Virus record (IMG/VR): IMGVR_UViG_2851971941_000002
DNA length: 39,096 nucleotides
Strand: one strand, 5' to 3'
DNA from: a virus
Taxonomy: Duplodnaviria > Heunggongvirae > Uroviricota > Caudoviricetes
Position 1 is the stretch's first letter. Every line of letters starts with the position of its first letter. Positions 92 to 6,880 of this stretch are shown here, piece after piece. The notes below the pieces were generated by a model, which was not told where the DNA came from, did not search any database, and saw nothing but the letters and a program-made list of their open reading frames with translations. The position numbers and the translations under genes are program-made.

Positions 92-385
92 TCACCCACG
101 ATTAACCAACAGCCAGACCAGCAGACACGCCACCACCGGCACAGCAAAATCCATCAGGCTTGCCACATCCCAAGCTCGCGGATCAAAACCGCCCCACCAC
201 GGCATATTCATTCGCTTGCCATGCCCGAACATTTCAATCCAGCGATATTCTGCCTGGGTATGTTCACGCGCAATGAAGAACGTACAACCGGCTATCGCTC
301 CGTAAGCCCAGTTTCCGGTAAAAAGACCAACCAGTATCTGCGCAGCCACAGCACAAAGTGCATGAAGTAAGGGGCTTATATCCAT
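92..385 (-). CDS. hypothetical small membrane protein (97 aa, about 3 hydrophobic segments)
   Basis: ORF track; AGGAGG Shine-Dalgarno (revcomp of 389-394) upstream of ATG at 385, overlapping the stop of the upstream ORF; hydrophobic stretches LLHALCAVAAQILVGLF and FAVPVVACLLVWLLV; last gene of the stf operon. Confidence 0.5.
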   Translation of the reverse strand: MDISPLLHALCAVAAQILVGLFTGNWAYGAIAGCTFFIAREHTQAEYRWIEMFGHGKRMNMPWWGGFDPRAWDVASLMDFAVPVVACLLVWLLVNRG

Positions 386-397
386 TATTTCCTCCTT

Positions 398-676
398 TCA
401 GCTCCATTCCCGAAGCGGTGTTTCCAGCTCCACGACATAATCAGAGAATACAGAAACATCAAACAAGTCATCAAGAATGCGAATGTTGACAAAATAACCA
501 TCATTCCGGATACAGACAGGTTCTCCCTCTTCTGTTACCCCTGTTTCTGTGTAGGTGAAACCAATTTCATCAACTAACAGTTTATTCTGGAGGTCTTCAT
601 CTTCCGCCCAGCCAAGAGATGACAGGAAGGCCTTAAACTGCAGTTTGTCATGAAACTTCAAAGTTAAATCTTTCAT
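398..676 (-). CDS. hypothetical small acidic protein (92 aa), translationally coupled to stf
   Basis: ORF track; its start overlaps the stf stop by 4 nt (ATGA); about 20 Asp/Glu versus about 8 Lys/Arg; no family recognised. Confidence 0.5.
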   Translation of the reverse strand: MKDLTLKFHDKLQFKAFLSSLGWAEDEDLQNKLLVDEIGFTYTETGVTEEGEPVCIRNDGYFVNIRILDDLFDVSVFSDYVVELETPLREWS

Positions 677-2733
677 ACGACCTCTTTTAATTGCCTGTCA
701 TTTAATTCTTTATGCCATATGCGGAAATTGCGAATATGGCCAAACAGATGTCGTTCTCCAGTATTCGTCTGCCCTCCAAATCGGATATTTTTATCAGCGG
801 TCACGCCATTATATTCACAATAAACTTCATTAACCGCTTTACCATTTGTCACCACATGAAAGTGACCATCAGCTTTTGCAATACATCCAAATGTGGTTTT
901 CTCTGCAAATACATCTGTCGCTGCGCTATTAACATACGAGCCTGAAGGGTTTGACAGACTCATATATAACTTACCACTACCTCTGTTGATTGCTGCAATT
1001 GCTGATTGCCCGGTATTGGCTGCTGCTATATCCCACACGCGGGGTGCGGCGTTTGGTGCAATATCCCAGTTTTTATGAATCTCAAGTAAAAAAGTAAATG
1101 GTAACTTATAAAGATTATTTCTGGTGGGGATACTAACCAAATCACTGGCTCTTGTCGTTGCGCTGCCTCCTGAAATAATAAATGATGATACACACGGCCC
1201 ATTCTCTACTTGTGGGGTGGCAAGATAAATATAGTCACCAGATACTGTTGCCCCACCCTGCCCAGGAGAATACTGTATCTGAGAGCCTATTTTTAACTCA
1301 CCATCAATTGCCTGAATCGTTGCCTCTGCAAAAATCCAGCCCGTGGTCTTATCCTTCCTGACTCGTGCCGTAATTCTGCCGGCAGCACCACCTGTCATAC
1401 TAATTTCAAGCGTTTGCGTATCAATGTACGCATCGCCAAGAAAAGTTGTTGCACTACCATCATACTTATCAAACCGTATACGTAACCTTACCTGTCGTTC
1501 TGTTTTAAAACGGCATGAGGTTGTCACGTACTTGTTATCGCCTGAGACATCAACTGACTTTGTTGCAGCAATTGATGCCATATTAATAGCCGAAGTTTGC
1601 CCAACCAGAGAATCGTTGCAGACAAACTTTCCATAAGTAAAACCAAAACTATCCGTCCCGGTTTCGGGCACATCCATGTTTGATGACTTCCCCCAGCTGG
1701 CTGGACTTTCCGAATTGAGCATGTAGTTCGTTCTTTGTCCCTCAATAAGCAGGCCATCACACTCAAATCGCGGCTCATTAATTTCCGCCGTTTTCAGTTC
1801 GCCAGATTTGTTGATATATGTTGCCGTTGATGCGCGACTGAAATTAACCTGTTTATCACTGGCGACCTGAACCACATCGTCACCAATAGCTATTTTTTTA
1901 TAGCCCGGAGAAAAACCCGCAATCATATCCAGTGAATCGTTAAACGGTATCCACACATCAGGCAGCGGCGGCACTATATTCGCACAGGGCTCTGCAGTCA
2001 CTTCCGCTGCGGCTTCTGCGCGGTCTGCCGCCTTTTCAGCTCGTGTCGCTGCCGACAGAGCCTCATCCTTTTTCTGCCCGGCCTTTGTTGCGTCTGCTGC
2101 GGCCTCCCGCGCTTTTGTGGTGGCGACTCCGGCATTTTCAGCGGCTGACTCTGCATTACGGCGGGAAGCCTCTTCACTGTCTGCGGAGGCTTCTTCTGAC
2201 GCACGGGCATTTGTCTCTGAACGTTCTGCCGCTGTTGCTGCGTTTTGTGCGGCTGTTTTTGAAGAAGCTGCCGCTTTCGCGCTGTTACCTGCATTCGTCT
2301 CTGATGTTTTCGCCGCGTTCCTGGACGATGCCGCTGCTGTTTCTGATTTCTTTGCTGCCGCTGCGCTCTGAGAGGCGGCTTCAGCGTTGCGTGCCGCCTC
2401 TTCCACCATCTTTTCAAAACGATACAGTGCCTCCGGACAAACATCATCTTCTGTTGCAGCGCCCAGAAAATCATTCAATGTCCCCGGCTTAGAATCCTCA
2501 TACACGGTGATGGTCCCGGCATGTGAAGGCGGAAAACCTTCAACCAGCAGGGCGACGCTGTACTGGCCATACTCAACATCCATGCTGTAACGTCCGGCTT
2601 CATCCGGATTTTCTGAGGCCACCGTGTTCACCACAACTGTGGTGCTGTTACGTTTTGCTTTCAGCTGGATTGTGCAGTTCTGTACCGGTTTTCCTGTGCC
2701 GTCTTTCAGTACACCTGAAATCTTTACTGCCAT
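673..2733 (-). CDS. stf: side tail fiber protein, lambda Stf-like N-terminus with a different C-terminal region
   Basis: N-terminus MAVKISGVLKDGTGKPVQNCTIQLKA...GFPPSHAGTITVYEDS matches lambda Stf as recalled; Ala/Ser-rich central region; C-terminal motif GHIRNFRIWHKELNDRQL resembles the end of ConA/LamG-like domains; ATG at 2733 chosen over the GTG at 2739 used by the ORF track. Confidence 0.85.
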   Translation of the reverse strand: MAVKISGVLKDGTGKPVQNCTIQLKAKRNSTTVVVNTVASENPDEAGRYSMDVEYGQYSVALLVEGFPPSHAGTITVYEDSKPGTLNDFLGAATEDDVCPEALYRFEKMVEEAARNAEAASQSAAAAKKSETAAASSRNAAKTSETNAGNSAKAAASSKTAAQNAATAAERSETNARASEEASADSEEASRRNAESAAENAGVATTKAREAAADATKAGQKKDEALSAATRAEKAADRAEAAAEVTAEPCANIVPPLPDVWIPFNDSLDMIAGFSPGYKKIAIGDDVVQVASDKQVNFSRASTATYINKSGELKTAEINEPRFECDGLLIEGQRTNYMLNSESPASWGKSSNMDVPETGTDSFGFTYGKFVCNDSLVGQTSAINMASIAATKSVDVSGDNKYVTTSCRFKTERQVRLRIRFDKYDGSATTFLGDAYIDTQTLEISMTGGAAGRITARVRKDKTTGWIFAEATIQAIDGELKIGSQIQYSPGQGGATVSGDYIYLATPQVENGPCVSSFIISGGSATTRASDLVSIPTRNNLYKLPFTFLLEIHKNWDIAPNAAPRVWDIAAANTGQSAIAAINRGSGKLYMSLSNPSGSYVNSAATDVFAEKTTFGCIAKADGHFHVVTNGKAVNEVYCEYNGVTADKNIRFGGQTNTGERHLFGHIRNFRIWHKELNDRQLKEVV

Positions 2734-2742
2734 ATTCACCCC

Positions 2743-2771
2743 ACAAAAAAGCCCGCCTGAACCGGCGGGCT
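2743..2771 (-). terminator. candidate rho-independent terminator between lom and stf
   Basis: On the minus strand, stem AGCCCGCCG / CGGCGGGCT followed by TTTTTTGTGGGG. Confidence 0.5.
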
Positions 2772-2797: not shown

Positions 2798-3397
2798 TCA
2801 GAACTTATAACCGACACCCACGATGAAACCGTCAGTGCGCCAGTCGCCACTGCCGGAGCCTTCATAAGCAATATCAATGGCCACGGATTCGGTCGGGTTA
2901 AACTGCACGCCAGCTCCCCACGCCAGAGACGTGTTGCTGTGGCGACCGTCATCACTTCCGGTCAGCACGTCGTGCGTTTTCCCCTTGTTGTCAGTTACGC
3001 GGAGATAATCCCCGGAGAAAGTCGACACACGGCTGTAAGCCATACCCGCCATCGCATACGCGCTGAACCATTCATTCACGCGCACAGACGGCCCCACCAT
3101 CACGCTGAACCAGCGGTTACGCACGGAATCTTCATGCCAGCGGGTATCGCTGTAACGGGTAAGCTGGCGATTCTTGTCTCCTGCATAGCTGAATGACGTC
3201 ACCAGCCCCAGTGTGTCCGTAAACTCATAACGGTATTTCACGTTAATCCCGTTAAGATCATCGCTGCCGGGAACGTTCGTCGAGGCATGAAGATACCCCG
3301 CGCTCAGCGTGGACTGATGTTCAGATGCCCATGCAGGCGCACCGGATACGGCCAGACAAATGGCTGCGGACAAAATGGCGGCATAAAGTTTACGCAT
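2798..3397 (-). CDS. lom: Lom-like outer membrane protein (Ail/Lom/PagC family)
   Basis: Signal peptide [40 protein letters not shown] and C-terminal [25 protein letters not shown] match lambda Lom as recalled; position between J and stf as in lambda. Confidence 0.9.
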
Positions 3398-3420: not shown

Positions 3421-3446
3421 TAAAAAAGGCACCATTTCTGGTGCCC
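3421..3446 (-). terminator. rho-independent terminator downstream of J
   Basis: On the minus strand, stem GGCACCA-GAAA-TGGTGCC followed by TTTTTTATT. Confidence 0.6.
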
Positions 3447-3466
3447 TTATATGGGTTATAACAATT

Positions 3467-6400
3467 TCAACGAATACTGATGCCGGAAGCGGCTTTTTTG
3501 GTCACAATCACCGTACAGTCGGTGATATTACCTGCCCACTGATTGCCTTTATGGAAAACCTTAAACTCCAGAGTGACGCTTCCCCTGCCACTCGGCATAT
3601 CAATAACCGCACTGTAGCTACCGGGAATGGCCCCTTTAGTTTCTCTGGATGCGATTAATACACCGTTTTTGCGAACTTCAAAACCATAACCCGTGTATCT
3701 TGTACCTCCCGGGTTATTACCACTTCCCGGATCGCTATACGCTATTCCGTTAAAGATAATGGGCGGAATAATGATTTGACGGTCAAAGTTATGATCATCG
3801 CTGATGGTGACTGTAACCGTCCCGTTTGGTGTTTCCGTGTTACCCCACGTACCAGCCTGTTTCGGAAATGATTTGGATACAGCTTTAACGAAGTCACCTC
3901 TGACCTGAGTCGCCTCCAGCATGCCCTTAATCGTACAGTTTTCATTTACCGTGACATTGTTGAGCGTCCCGGCGTTCGCATTCACACTGCCACTGATATC
4001 CGCATTTTTAGCGGTCAGCTTTCCGTCTGATGTCAGGGAAAATACCGGAGGACTGCCACCACTGGTAATGGTGGGGGCCGTCAGGCGCTTCAGGAACACG
4101 TCGTTCATGAATATCTGATTGCCCTGCGCCACAAACATCGGCGTTTCATTCCCGTTTGCCGGGTCAATAAATGCGATACGGTTAGCGGCAACCAGAAACT
4201 GACTCAGTTTGCCTTCCTCCGTGTCCTCCATGCTGAGGCCAATACCCGCGACATAATGTTTGCCGTCTTTGGTCTGCTCAATTTTGACGCCCCACATGGC
4301 ATTCCACTTATCGTTGGCGTCCTTCCACTCTTTCGAAAACTCCTCCAGTCTGCTGGCGTTATCCTCCGTCAGCTCGACTTTTTCCAGCAGCTCCTTGCCG
4401 AGATGGGATTCGGTTATCTTGCCTTTGAAAAAATCCAGGTAACCTTCCGCATCATCGCTCGCCCGACCGACGGCCTCCACGAATGCCGATTTGCCAACGG
4501 TGTTCACACTGCGGATATAAAAGTAATAATCATGGCCCGGTTTGATATTGATACTGGCGGCTATCCAGTACAGCGCCGTACCAAGATAGCGGGCTGTGGT
4601 TTCAACCTGCCTGATATCGGTAATCCGCTTTTCCGAGAACCAGAACTCAAACTGTACCGTCGGGTCATAAACGGCAAGATGCGGCGTGGCGGTTATCTGA
4701 AAATAGCCCGGCGTCAGCTCAATCCTCGACGGTGCTGCCGGTGCGGCAATCCGGAACGATACCGACGCCGGATCGCCCTGCTGCCCCCACGCATTTACCG
4801 CCCGGACTGTCAGCCTGTAGTTCCCCAGCGCCAGTTGCCTGAAGCGGTATGTGGTTTCCGTCGTCCGGGCCGTGCTGACCAGCCGCTCACTGCCGTCATC
4901 CGCTGTTACGGTCAGACGGAGCAGGAAGCTCACGCCCTTCACCACCTTCGGCGTGTCCCAGCGCGCCAGCACCTGATATTCCCCGCTGTCTGCGGTGACT
5001 TCGGCGGTCAGGTGCTGCACCGCTGGCGGCGTGACACCATTCACCGTGCCGCTCTGGTCGCCGTCAAAGTACGCCCCGTTATCCACGATGGCCTCTTTTT
5101 CCGGTACATGCTGCACGGCGGTGATGGCATACGTGCCGTCGTCGTTCTCACGGATACTCACGCAGCGGAACAGGCGCTGGCGCAGCGTCGGCAGCTTCAG
5201 CCCCCACACGCTGTATTCAGCAACACCGTCAGGAACACGGCTCACTTTCACCTTCACGCCGTCGGTGACGGACTGAACCTCCACGCTGATCGGATTGCCA
5301 CTTCCGTCAACCAGGCTTATCAGCGTGGTACCGGAGGATGGCAGCGTGATTTCACGGTCGAGCGTCAGCGTCCGGGTCTGGCTGTTTACCGCCAGCACGC
5401 GCCCGCCGATGCTGATACCGGCATAGTCATCATCACAGATTTCAATGACATCGCCCGGCACATGGCGAAGCCCTTCTGCGCCCACGCAGAAGTCCACGGT
5501 CTGCGTTTCCAGCAGTTCTGTTTTAATCAGCCACAGCCCGGCGCGGTGTGCCTGCCCCCGGCTGGTACAGCCAAAAGCATCCATCTTCGTGACGTTACGA
5601 CCGTAACGGGCAATGGCCTGCGTATCCTCCACAAGCTCTGTCGCCGTCTCCCAGCCGTTGTTCGGGTCAATCCAGTTCACCTCAACGGCATTATGGCGGT
5701 CTTTCAGGGCGCTGAAACTGTAGCGGAACGGCGCGCCATCATCCGGCATCACCACATTACTGCGGTTATAGGTCCACACCTTATCCGACGGTCGGTCCTG
5801 CACGAACGTCAGCGTCTGCCCGTTCCATACCGGCATACAGCGCATCGCCGAGCAGAAATCACTGAGCACATCCCACGCCTTGCGCTGTGTGGTCAGGTAC
5901 GCATTACAGGTGATGCGCGGCTCCGTGCCGCCAAAGCCGTCCGGCACTGACTGGTCGCAGTACTGGCCGATGACATACAGCGCCCATTTGTCCACATCCG
6001 CCGCACCAAGACGTTTCCCCATGCCGTAGCGTGGATGGGTCAGCATATCCCACAGACACCAGGCCATGTTATTGCTGTATGCTGGCTTAAACGTTCCGTC
6101 CCAGATACCGCTGTATTGCCGCGTCTGCGGGTTATAGTTCGACGGCACCTGCAGAATACGCCCGCGCAGATGATAATTACGGCTCACCTGCTGGCTGCCG
6201 AACTGCTCCGAATCCACCTGTACGCCGACCAGTGCCGTGTTCGGGTAGCACTGTTTCACATCGATGATTTCGGTGTATGACGACCAGAGCGTTTTGTTCT
6301 GCAGCTGGTCTGTGGTGCTGTCCGGCGTCATCCTGCGCATCCGGATATTGAACGGGCGCGGCGGCAGGTTACCCACCACCACCGAGGCCAGATACTGTGA

Positions 6401-6880
6401 GGTGGTTTTGCCTTTAATGGTGATGTCTTTTTCCGTCACCCAGCCACCGTTACGCTGTATCTGAACCAGCAGGCGGACTTCCGACGGATTCCGGTCCCCC
6501 TTTGAGGTGGTTTCCACCAGTGCCTGCACACCGAAGGTAAAGCGCAGACGGTCGATGTTTGCAGACGTGATGGTCCGGGTAATCGGCGTGTCGTACTTCA
6601 CTTCCGTACCCAGCACCGTCTCGGAGCCGGAGGATTCAAATCCCTCCGGCGGTGTCTGCTCCTGCTCACCTGCCCGGAAAACCACCGTGACACCGGAGAT
6701 ATTGGTATTCCCCTCACTGTCCAGCACTGGCGTACTGTTCAGCAGCACACTTTTTAATCCGTCCACCGGACCTTCAATCGGCCCTTCACTGATGGCGTCT
6801 ATCACGCTCAGCATCTGGGATGATTTCAGGTTGTCCTTCGCTTCGCGCGGGGTATGCCCCTTACTGCTGCCTTTACCCAT
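3467..6880 (-). CDS. J: tail tip / host specificity protein J
   Basis: 1137 aa; N-terminus [41 protein letters not shown] matches lambda J as recalled; lambda gene order. Confidence 0.95.

Follow-up and report, generated by a model that had tools for sequence, protein, structure and literature searches.

The function of the small gene located directly downstream of the side tail fibre gene stf was not obvious from the annotation of the locus. Its position suggests a part in fibre assembly, while its small, strongly acidic product also resembles the proteins with which phages counteract host defence. The gene lies near the start of the window, by which we mean the whole analysed stretch of 39,096 nucleotides of the IMG/VR virus record IMGVR_UViG_2851971941_000002 (Caudoviricetes). 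The first 3.5 kb of the window are 100% identical to the reverse strand of Escherichia phage Perceval (OV696612, genus Bievrevirus). The genes on the minus strand follow each other in the order J (3467–6880), lom (2798–3397), stf, the 92-aa open reading frame and a gene encoding a 97-aa hydrophobic protein. The features of this region are as follows:

2750–2771, minus strand: terminator-like hairpin between lom and stf, found by a consensus scan (a pattern match only)
673–2739, minus strand: stf, encoding the 688-aa side tail fibre protein with an N-terminal domain, an Ala-rich coiled coil and a distal cassette
681–687, minus strand: Shine-Dalgarno-like AAAGAGG in the last stf codons (K-E codons), read from the sequence (AAAGAGGTCGTATG)
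673–676, minus strand: ATGA start/stop overlap of stf and the small gene, an arrangement for translational coupling, read from the sequence
398–676, minus strand: gene of the 92-aa acidic protein (phrog_1361 family), from the open reading frame listing and the sequence
92–385, minus strand: gene of the 97-aa hydrophobic protein (phrog_1443), next in the operon

The N-terminus of Stf matches the Pfam family PF08400 ("prophage tail fibre N-terminal") over residues 3–133 (E 6e-68). The protein also matches phrog_1419 and is labelled "tail fiber protein" in Perceval. No further signal of this kind was found between the hairpin at 2750–2771 and the block formed by stf, the small gene and the 97-aa gene, and a consensus scan of the block itself detected no promoter-like or terminator-like site. 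A second terminator-like hairpin is located at 3425–3448 on the minus strand, 3′ of J, and two hairpins thus flank lom.

The sequence-only reading of this locus had described a 92-aa open reading frame with about 20 acidic and about 8 basic residues that starts inside the stf stop codon, and both statements hold. The protein contains 20 D+E, 8 K+R and one H, with a pI of 4.17 and a mass of 10.7 kDa. The ATG of the small gene (676–674) and the TGA of stf (675–673) share the bases ATGA, giving a 4-nt overlap of the two reading frames. The GAGG core of the Shine-Dalgarno-like motif lies at 681–684, four bases 5′ of the ATG, and a GGAG/GGGG-type purine run precedes the start in four of the six other relatives compared (L6jm, rolling, JenP1 and IrisVonRoten). 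The AlphaFold model of the protein has an alpha/beta fold (pLDDT 90.2), in which a strand (residues 2–8) is followed by helices 11–20 and 27–32, strands 33–39, 42–47, 53–57 and 61–67, and helix 74–77. Reading the 92 residues by eye, and not with a predictor, revealed no signal-peptide-like or transmembrane-like hydrophobic stretch.

A spacer of 12 nt separates the small gene from the 97-aa gene, whose Shine-Dalgarno motif AAGGAGG overlaps the stop codon of the small gene. Its product is probably a membrane protein and has no match in Pfam or PADLOC. In 77 of the analysed loci it comes after the small gene, almost all of them being E. coli prophage-type IMG/VR contigs, and in Perceval it occupies the position of the second fibre of other phages. 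It is a candidate for a lysogenic-conversion or exclusion protein.

No family had been recognised for the small protein from its letters alone. A family does exist, though one annotated as "unknown function": phrog_1361 is matched over residues 1–91 of 92 (E 3.2e-42), and phrog_18574, annotated in the same way, with E 1.7e-6. Other identifiers are VOG7707 and FIG00639828. All 27 diverse relatives that were compared match phrog_1361. With tblastn the small gene was found in 143 phage records at 41–100% identity, and divergent variants of it in about 35 rV5-like and about 21 AKFV33-like records; the three search sets may overlap, and these counts are approximate. A profile search of 1.8 billion representative proteins gave 78 matches. 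The 35 inspected matches of 85–152 aa are all standalone proteins with conserved termini. Three long matches (P0065, P0073 and P0097) were considered as fusion proteins and rejected, as they are repeat proteins with a "VN.R..DD" motif and not Rosetta-stone fusions. The family is characterized by the N-terminus M-[KR]-D-x-x-L-[KR]-F, the central strand G-[YW]-[FH]-V-N-[LIV]-R and the C-terminal end P-x-R-x-W-A, and its acidity is retained, with a pI of 4.05–4.8 in 27 of 27 members. The median dN/dS among the small-gene alleles of E. coli prophages is about 0.32, and the gene is under purifying selection. The relatives in 143 phage records, the standalone profile matches with conserved termini and this dN/dS value show that the open reading frame is more than a chance occurrence.

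Relatives of assigned function were not detected. In the databases the family members are labelled "hypothetical protein", except in the RefSeq record of IrisVonRoten, where the label is "tail fiber protein". Pfam gave nothing at E≤1 for the window protein and nothing at E≤0.01 for the 27 relatives, and neither the 92-aa protein nor its 27 relatives had a match in NCBIfam or PADLOC. The only match of the family searches with the window protein and the 27 relatives, LUD_dom (E 0.29), did not reach the threshold and was rejected as a relative, and the sole sequence-profile match in the PDB, Tetrahymena p19 (E 0.02–0.58), was judged spurious. The confident AlphaFold model matched no fold among the solved structures, fibre chaperones and adhesins included. 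The profile searches and structure prediction that had been suggested as a check on the sequence-only reading lead to no known chaperone family and to no solved fold. Our literature searches found no paper addressing the PHROG 1361 / 18574 family, and the small protein is not mentioned in the phage 21 and Perceval literature, the Eligo Stf engineering preprint, the Gifsy-1 Stf paper or the KanT1 paper.

The context of the gene proved to be more informative than its sequence. The part of stf that precedes it contains the following elements:

676–1959, minus strand: distal cassette of stf (Stf residues 261–688), moving horizontally with the small gene (tblastn)
1105–1845, minus strand: domain homologous to the RcGTA head spike fibre Rcc01080 (Stf residues 299–545; phmmer against the PDB)
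691–1056, minus strand: C-terminal LamG / concanavalin-like "lectin head", net basic (Stf residues 562–683; Pfam PF13385 Laminin_G_3)

The cassette, comprising the last ~428 residues of Stf, consists of the Rcc01080-like domain followed by the LamG head. It was found by tblastn in 216 phage records, in 204 of them with at least 80% coverage. The identity of the cassette among enterobacterial phages is 40–83%; the N-terminal parts joined to it are unrelated, with mostly ~17–20% identity between lineages. In a myovirus the cassette forms the end of a 1479-aa fibre. The homology to Rcc01080 is supported by PDB entry 6tb9 chain F3 (E 2.8e-10) and by the NCBIfam model GTA_spike_fiber at Stf residues 331–531. 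In RcGTA, Rcc01080 is present as a single subunit per head spike and binds capsule polysaccharide (PMC7296036). The homology implies that the same module serves on heads and on tail fibres. The C-terminal head has been named galectin-like or lectin-like (PMC11990801, PMC12143355).

The linkage of the small gene to this cassette was assessed in 166 loci, taken from phage records, from IMG/VR contigs and from the window. Without exception, the start of the small gene overlaps the stop of the upstream open reading frame; the overlap measures 4 nt in 85 loci and 1 nt in the other 81. In all 166 loci the upstream protein ends in the LamG terminal motif ...RN[FL]R[IV]W.x.L..Q... The co-occurrence with this stf C-terminal type, proposed earlier as a check, is therefore seen in every locus. 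In every record that was opened, the small gene is located directly 3′ of the cassette. The pair was found in the following lineages:

Lambdoid phages: Perceval, Lambda_4C10, 2G7b and ev243
A 108-kb phage with a lambda-type J-stf region: PhiR41_1
Drexlerviridae (T1-like): tunus
Dhillonvirus: rolling
Queuovirinae: JenP1 and VogelGryff
Tequintavirus (T5-like): L6jm, IrisVonRoten and AKFV33
Vequintavirus (rV5-like): CarlMeissner
Genomic loci: Leclercia, Silvania and Atlantibacter
A Rhodospirillaceae MAG contig: the cassette and small-gene pair, then a head-tail attachment gene

Phage 21 carries the same stf-to-end block as Perceval, with 98.6% DNA identity. These sequence comparisons show that the small gene moves between phages together with one specific type of fibre end, in six or more phage groups.

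Several loci of the set deserve a separate remark. In Lambda_4C10 (locus L007, 3417–5833) three "mobile element protein" open reading frames, representing an IS element, lie between a truncated stf and an intact small gene, and an IS insertion between the two genes is also present in 4A7, 1W, 3W and D2. The occurrence of these interrupted loci in deposited phage genomes suggests that phage propagation requires neither the lectin head nor the coupling. In Leclercia adecarboxylata NCTC13032 (L172, 2840–4812) the fibre-1 gene is split into several open reading frames; the small gene is still open, with its stop shifted by three codons (103 aa versus 100). This locus looks like a decaying prophage fibre locus. 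Records labelled as Campylobacter phages C13, A116, C12, A12a, C14 and C11 (hits H60, H70, H108, H109, H127, H132 and H139; C11 is marked UNVERIFIED) contain fibre loci of the E. coli T5-like or rV5-like type, with identities reaching 100%, as do those labelled as Listeria phages LM 4-11-1 and LM 4-14-1 (H161 and H190). These are probably mislabelled or contaminated assemblies.

The strict linkage bears on the second possibility raised by the sequence-only reading, namely a DNA mimic, an anti-defence protein or a superinfection-immunity protein that adjoins stf by chance. The sole support for it is the small size and the acidity of the protein, properties shared with DNA mimics of the Ocr and ArdA type. 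In every locus the gene belongs to the late structural operon of the fibre, which it joins through the overlap of its start codon with the preceding stop, and among unrelated phages it always moves together with the fibre cassette, not with early or moron regions. The protein has no PADLOC or Pfam match and no homology or fold match to Ocr or ArdA. The lack of any signal-peptide-like or transmembrane-like stretch and the compact alpha/beta model without a counterpart among the solved structures also speak against this explanation, which we regard as very unlikely. The small protein is almost certainly a fibre accessory protein, either a helper or a piece of a joint, and not an anti-defence protein.

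A comparison of fibre alleles indicates what such an accessory protein may do. The fibre gp41 of phage rV5 ends in Peptidase_S74, an intramolecular chaperone, and there is no gene between gp41 and gp40. The allele of the gp41-type fibre found in CarlMeissner and EmilHeitz ends in the lectin cassette and is followed by the small gene at a 1-nt overlap; the family member of CarlMeissner has 110 aa (HMM E 3e-19), and this Vequintavirus variant is without the C-terminal motif P-x-R-x-W-A. The replacement of S74 by the lectin head in EmilHeitz was noted in the RBPseg paper, in which the small protein is unmentioned. T5 Ltf and DT57C LtfA likewise have their own S74 intramolecular chaperone, and DT57C LtfA and LtfB are the consecutively numbered gp108 and gp107 (PMC4728585, PMC10713586), which implies that no gene is numbered between them. 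Peptidase_S74 was found neither in Stf nor in the small protein. Since the S74 allele lacks the small gene and the lectin allele has it, the small gene occurs where the fibre end has no built-in chaperone. This is the classical setting of a trans-acting fibre accessory protein. The S74 domains of T5 Ltf, the K1F endosialidase and rV5 gp41 are thus comparable to the small protein as an alternative allele at the same fibre locus. They differ from it in that the small protein is a separate polypeptide without sequence similarity to them and accompanies a globular lectin head, not a triple beta-helix tip. Virion proteomics of rV5 yielded no small-protein peptides, but rV5 does not carry the gene.

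The fibre end and the small protein are also of opposite charge. The last 130 residues of the fibre have a net charge of +2 to +8 in nine lineages, the rest of the fibre being acidic, while the net charge of the small protein is −9 to −12 in the lineages compared. This charge complementarity is conserved and fits a protein that acts on the head. The same observation, an acidic partner and a basic head kept despite low sequence identity, could be explained by a cap that masks or mimics the receptor on the basic glycan-binding face of the head, inside the cell and perhaps up to release. A groove could then take up the free C-terminal tail P-x-R-x-W-A, which is conserved. The idea is purely inferential, the basic head may merely reflect binding of an anionic receptor, and the Vequintavirus variant has lost the tail motif. 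We consider it improbable that the small protein is such a cap, and just as improbable that it would in this way block aggregation or early binding to anionic LPS precursors, nucleic acids and debris.

In many phages the small gene is followed, after 9–12 nt, by the gene of a second, short fibre. The proximal and distal fibre genes flank the small gene in T5-like and T1-like phages, Dhillonvirus, Queuovirinae, 2G7b and the Leclercia-related loci. The lambdoid order is complete in 2G7b: fibre 1, small gene, fibre 2 and 97-aa membrane protein. Fibre 2 is absent from Perceval, ev243 and PhiR41_1, and all six frames of the whole window are free of a docking peptide of the fibre-2 type. The second fibres contain their own Peptidase_S74 domain. 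The only part common to the enterobacterial second fibres is the N-terminal peptide M-x-[TS]-x-T-x-IP-x-DI-x-x-L[KQ]; its equivalent in the Leclercia-related second fibres is MANR[IK]D[ST]. Full-length matches to residues 1–26 of the IrisVonRoten distal fibre occur only in phages in which the cassette or the small gene was also found, while residues 27–70 are common to many other fibres. The small proteins of the Leclercia-related metagenomic set are 82–100% identical to the query (tblastn). In this set two hypervariable receptor-binding regions enclose a conserved island made up of the small gene, the terminal motif of fibre 1 and residues 1–6/7 of fibre 2. Such an island would suit a general helper as well as a universal joint. 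Two further observations concern the second fibre: in tunus (L003, 5292–5440) its N-terminus contains a tandem duplicate of the docking-type motif, IPSDITKLKNDVSTLKQDVA followed by IPGDITKLKSDVSTLKQDVA, and at locus L009 an ApeA-like HEPN gene (PF18862 and PF18739; 6015–7340, minus strand) follows fibre 2 immediately, on the opposite strand, and is probably a defence moron.

These data bring a structural explanation into play, in which the small protein is a joint or adaptor between the two fibres and persists as an end cap in Perceval-type phages, where the second fibre has been lost. In several phage groups the gene is located exactly between the proximal and distal fibre genes, with spacers of 9–12 nt. 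The second fibres have their own S74 chaperone and so need no helper. The confinement of residues 1–26 of the IrisVonRoten distal fibre to phages with the cassette or the small gene, and the conserved island of the Leclercia-related set, point in the same direction. In addition, the AlphaFold-based model of Humolli et al. (2025) gives Gp24 of IrisVonRoten the shape of a T and attaches this distal fibre to the lectin-headed proximal fibre Gp22, from which a "galectin-like domain protrudes from the C-terminus"; the small protein, Gp23, is not discussed (PMC11990801). The position of the small gene between the proximal and distal fibre genes, and the short conserved N-terminal docking peptide of the distal fibre, recall known fibre joints (T4 gp35/gp36, phiEco32 gp14/gp15, DT57C LtfA/LtfB); DT57C LtfB has been proposed to dock on an internal LtfA domain (PMC4728585, PMC10713586). 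The small protein differs from these in that it has no homology to T4 gp35 and that its gene is also found without any distal fibre. The gene is retained, with purifying selection, in the absence of a second fibre in Perceval, phage 21, ev243, PhiR41_1, Vequintavirus and the Rhodospirillaceae MAG. Moreover, the branched fibres DT57C LtfA/LtfB and AnnaHegner Gp9/Gp10 are consecutively numbered, with no small gene numbered between them. A rule that the terminal W-A occurs only together with a second fibre held in ten lineages and was dropped, since the protein of 2G7b ends in W-M; the broken trend also weakens the case for a joint. Overall, a joint of this kind is the main rival of the explanation that we prefer, though we rate it as less likely. 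A more far-reaching version, in which the small protein would be a universal plug-and-socket on the basic lectin head, docking any second fibre that bears the peptide M-x-T-x-T-x-IP-x-DI-x-x-LK (or MANRID in the Leclercia-related loci), is likewise rather unlikely. If it is true, one conserved joint would allow phages of very different families to exchange the receptor-binding fibres on both sides of it.

The explanation that we prefer, and consider somewhat likely to be correct, is that the small protein serves the lectin-headed fibre end as its dedicated accessory protein, is produced at about 1:1 through coupling and acts on the basic head. It agrees with the linkage of the gene to the cassette even in lineages without a second fibre, with the dN/dS of about 0.32 there, with the alternation of S74 domain and small gene, and with the conserved charge complementarity. 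We propose the following course of events. Ribosomes that finish Stf would translate the small gene next, and because the protein is made by ribosomes that have just completed Stf, about one copy would be produced per Stf chain. The small protein would bind the basic C-terminal head region of Stf and help the head to fold, stay soluble or assemble. In the sister fibre alleles the same task would be performed by the C-terminal self-cleaving intramolecular chaperone. The small protein might then be released, as a pure chaperone, or be kept at the fibre end as a subunit. Where a second short fibre follows, it may also form or stabilise the docking site for the N-terminal peptide of that fibre. 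An accessory helper and a joint are compatible with each other, as a helper that stays bound could be the socket.

The small protein was further compared with the known fibre chaperones. Like lambda Tfa, T4 gp38 and their Mu and P2 counterparts (Caudo_TAP, PF02413), it is encoded by a coupled gene directly 3′ of a fibre gene without an intramolecular chaperone, and it is expected to act on the C-terminal end of the fibre. Some Tfa proteins remain bound at the fibre tip. The small protein differs from Tfa and gp38 in being about half their size, in its predicted single alpha/beta domain and in showing no co-variation with the fibre tip; it has no Pfam Caudo_TAP match, and hhalign with the lambda-type Tfa fragment of ev243 gave a probability of 0.2%. 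A tip-specific chaperone of the Tfa type is contradicted by two pairs of loci: the heads of tunus and IrisVonRoten are 90% identical and their small proteins 47%, and in the related metagenomic viral contigs L008 and L077 the heads are 31% identical and the small proteins 87%. A mirror-tree analysis of the small protein against the cassette gave Spearman coefficients of 0.6–0.7; this signal is driven by clade structure, has clear counter-examples and was discarded. The absence of co-variation with the tip fits a general helper like T4 gp57A, which is likewise small and acidic and to which the small protein would be similar in aiding fibre assembly without tip specificity. T4 gp57A and the small protein are not homologous, and they differ in fold and in gene position: gp57A is all-helical and its gene lies away from the fibre genes, while the small protein has a predicted alpha/beta fold and its gene always adjoins the fibre end.

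Other observations count against the accessory role. The protein resembles none of the known fibre chaperones in sequence or in fold. In RcGTA, the homologue of the first domain of the cassette has been reported without such a partner (PMC7296036). The cassette domains may fold as monomers, and a helper of trimerisation would then be unneeded. In the gel mass spectrometry of AKFV33, which covered four large bands of a 10% gel, no peptides of the small protein ORF136 are listed. The fibre protein ORF137 of AKFV33 (L169, 2439–5060) has a predicted mass of 83.1 kDa and runs at 95.8 kDa in SDS-PAGE (PMC3326045); the excess of 12.7 kDa is near the 10.2 kDa of ORF136 and may be due to anomalous migration. 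Of the fibre chaperone suggested in the sequence-only reading, the link to the fibre is now well supported by the synteny and overlap in 166 of 166 loci and by the co-transfer with the cassette, while the chaperone activity itself continues to be deduced from position, which would suit a structural or joint role equally well, given the second fibre gene that comes next in many phages. Clear homology to a known fibre chaperone family, which that reading would have counted against itself, is absent at the level of Pfam, NCBIfam, hhalign and fold.

An accessory gene placed directly after a fibre gene is a known arrangement; the small-protein family itself is new and has no characterised relative. 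The analysis gives a defined functional context to a family of "unknown function" that is present in about 200 of the searched phage genomes and in the E. coli prophage loci of many further assemblies. Among the fibres with which siphoviruses of E. coli and Salmonella target the O-antigen, lectin-headed lateral and side fibres are some of the most common. They occur also in some Vequintavirus (rV5-like) myoviruses, and their exchange is being used to direct phages and phage-derived delivery particles to new targets. If the small protein is needed for the folding of the fibre end or is the joint to the second fibre, fibre-engineering constructs must include it, and the published structural models of lectin-headed fibres would miss a subunit.
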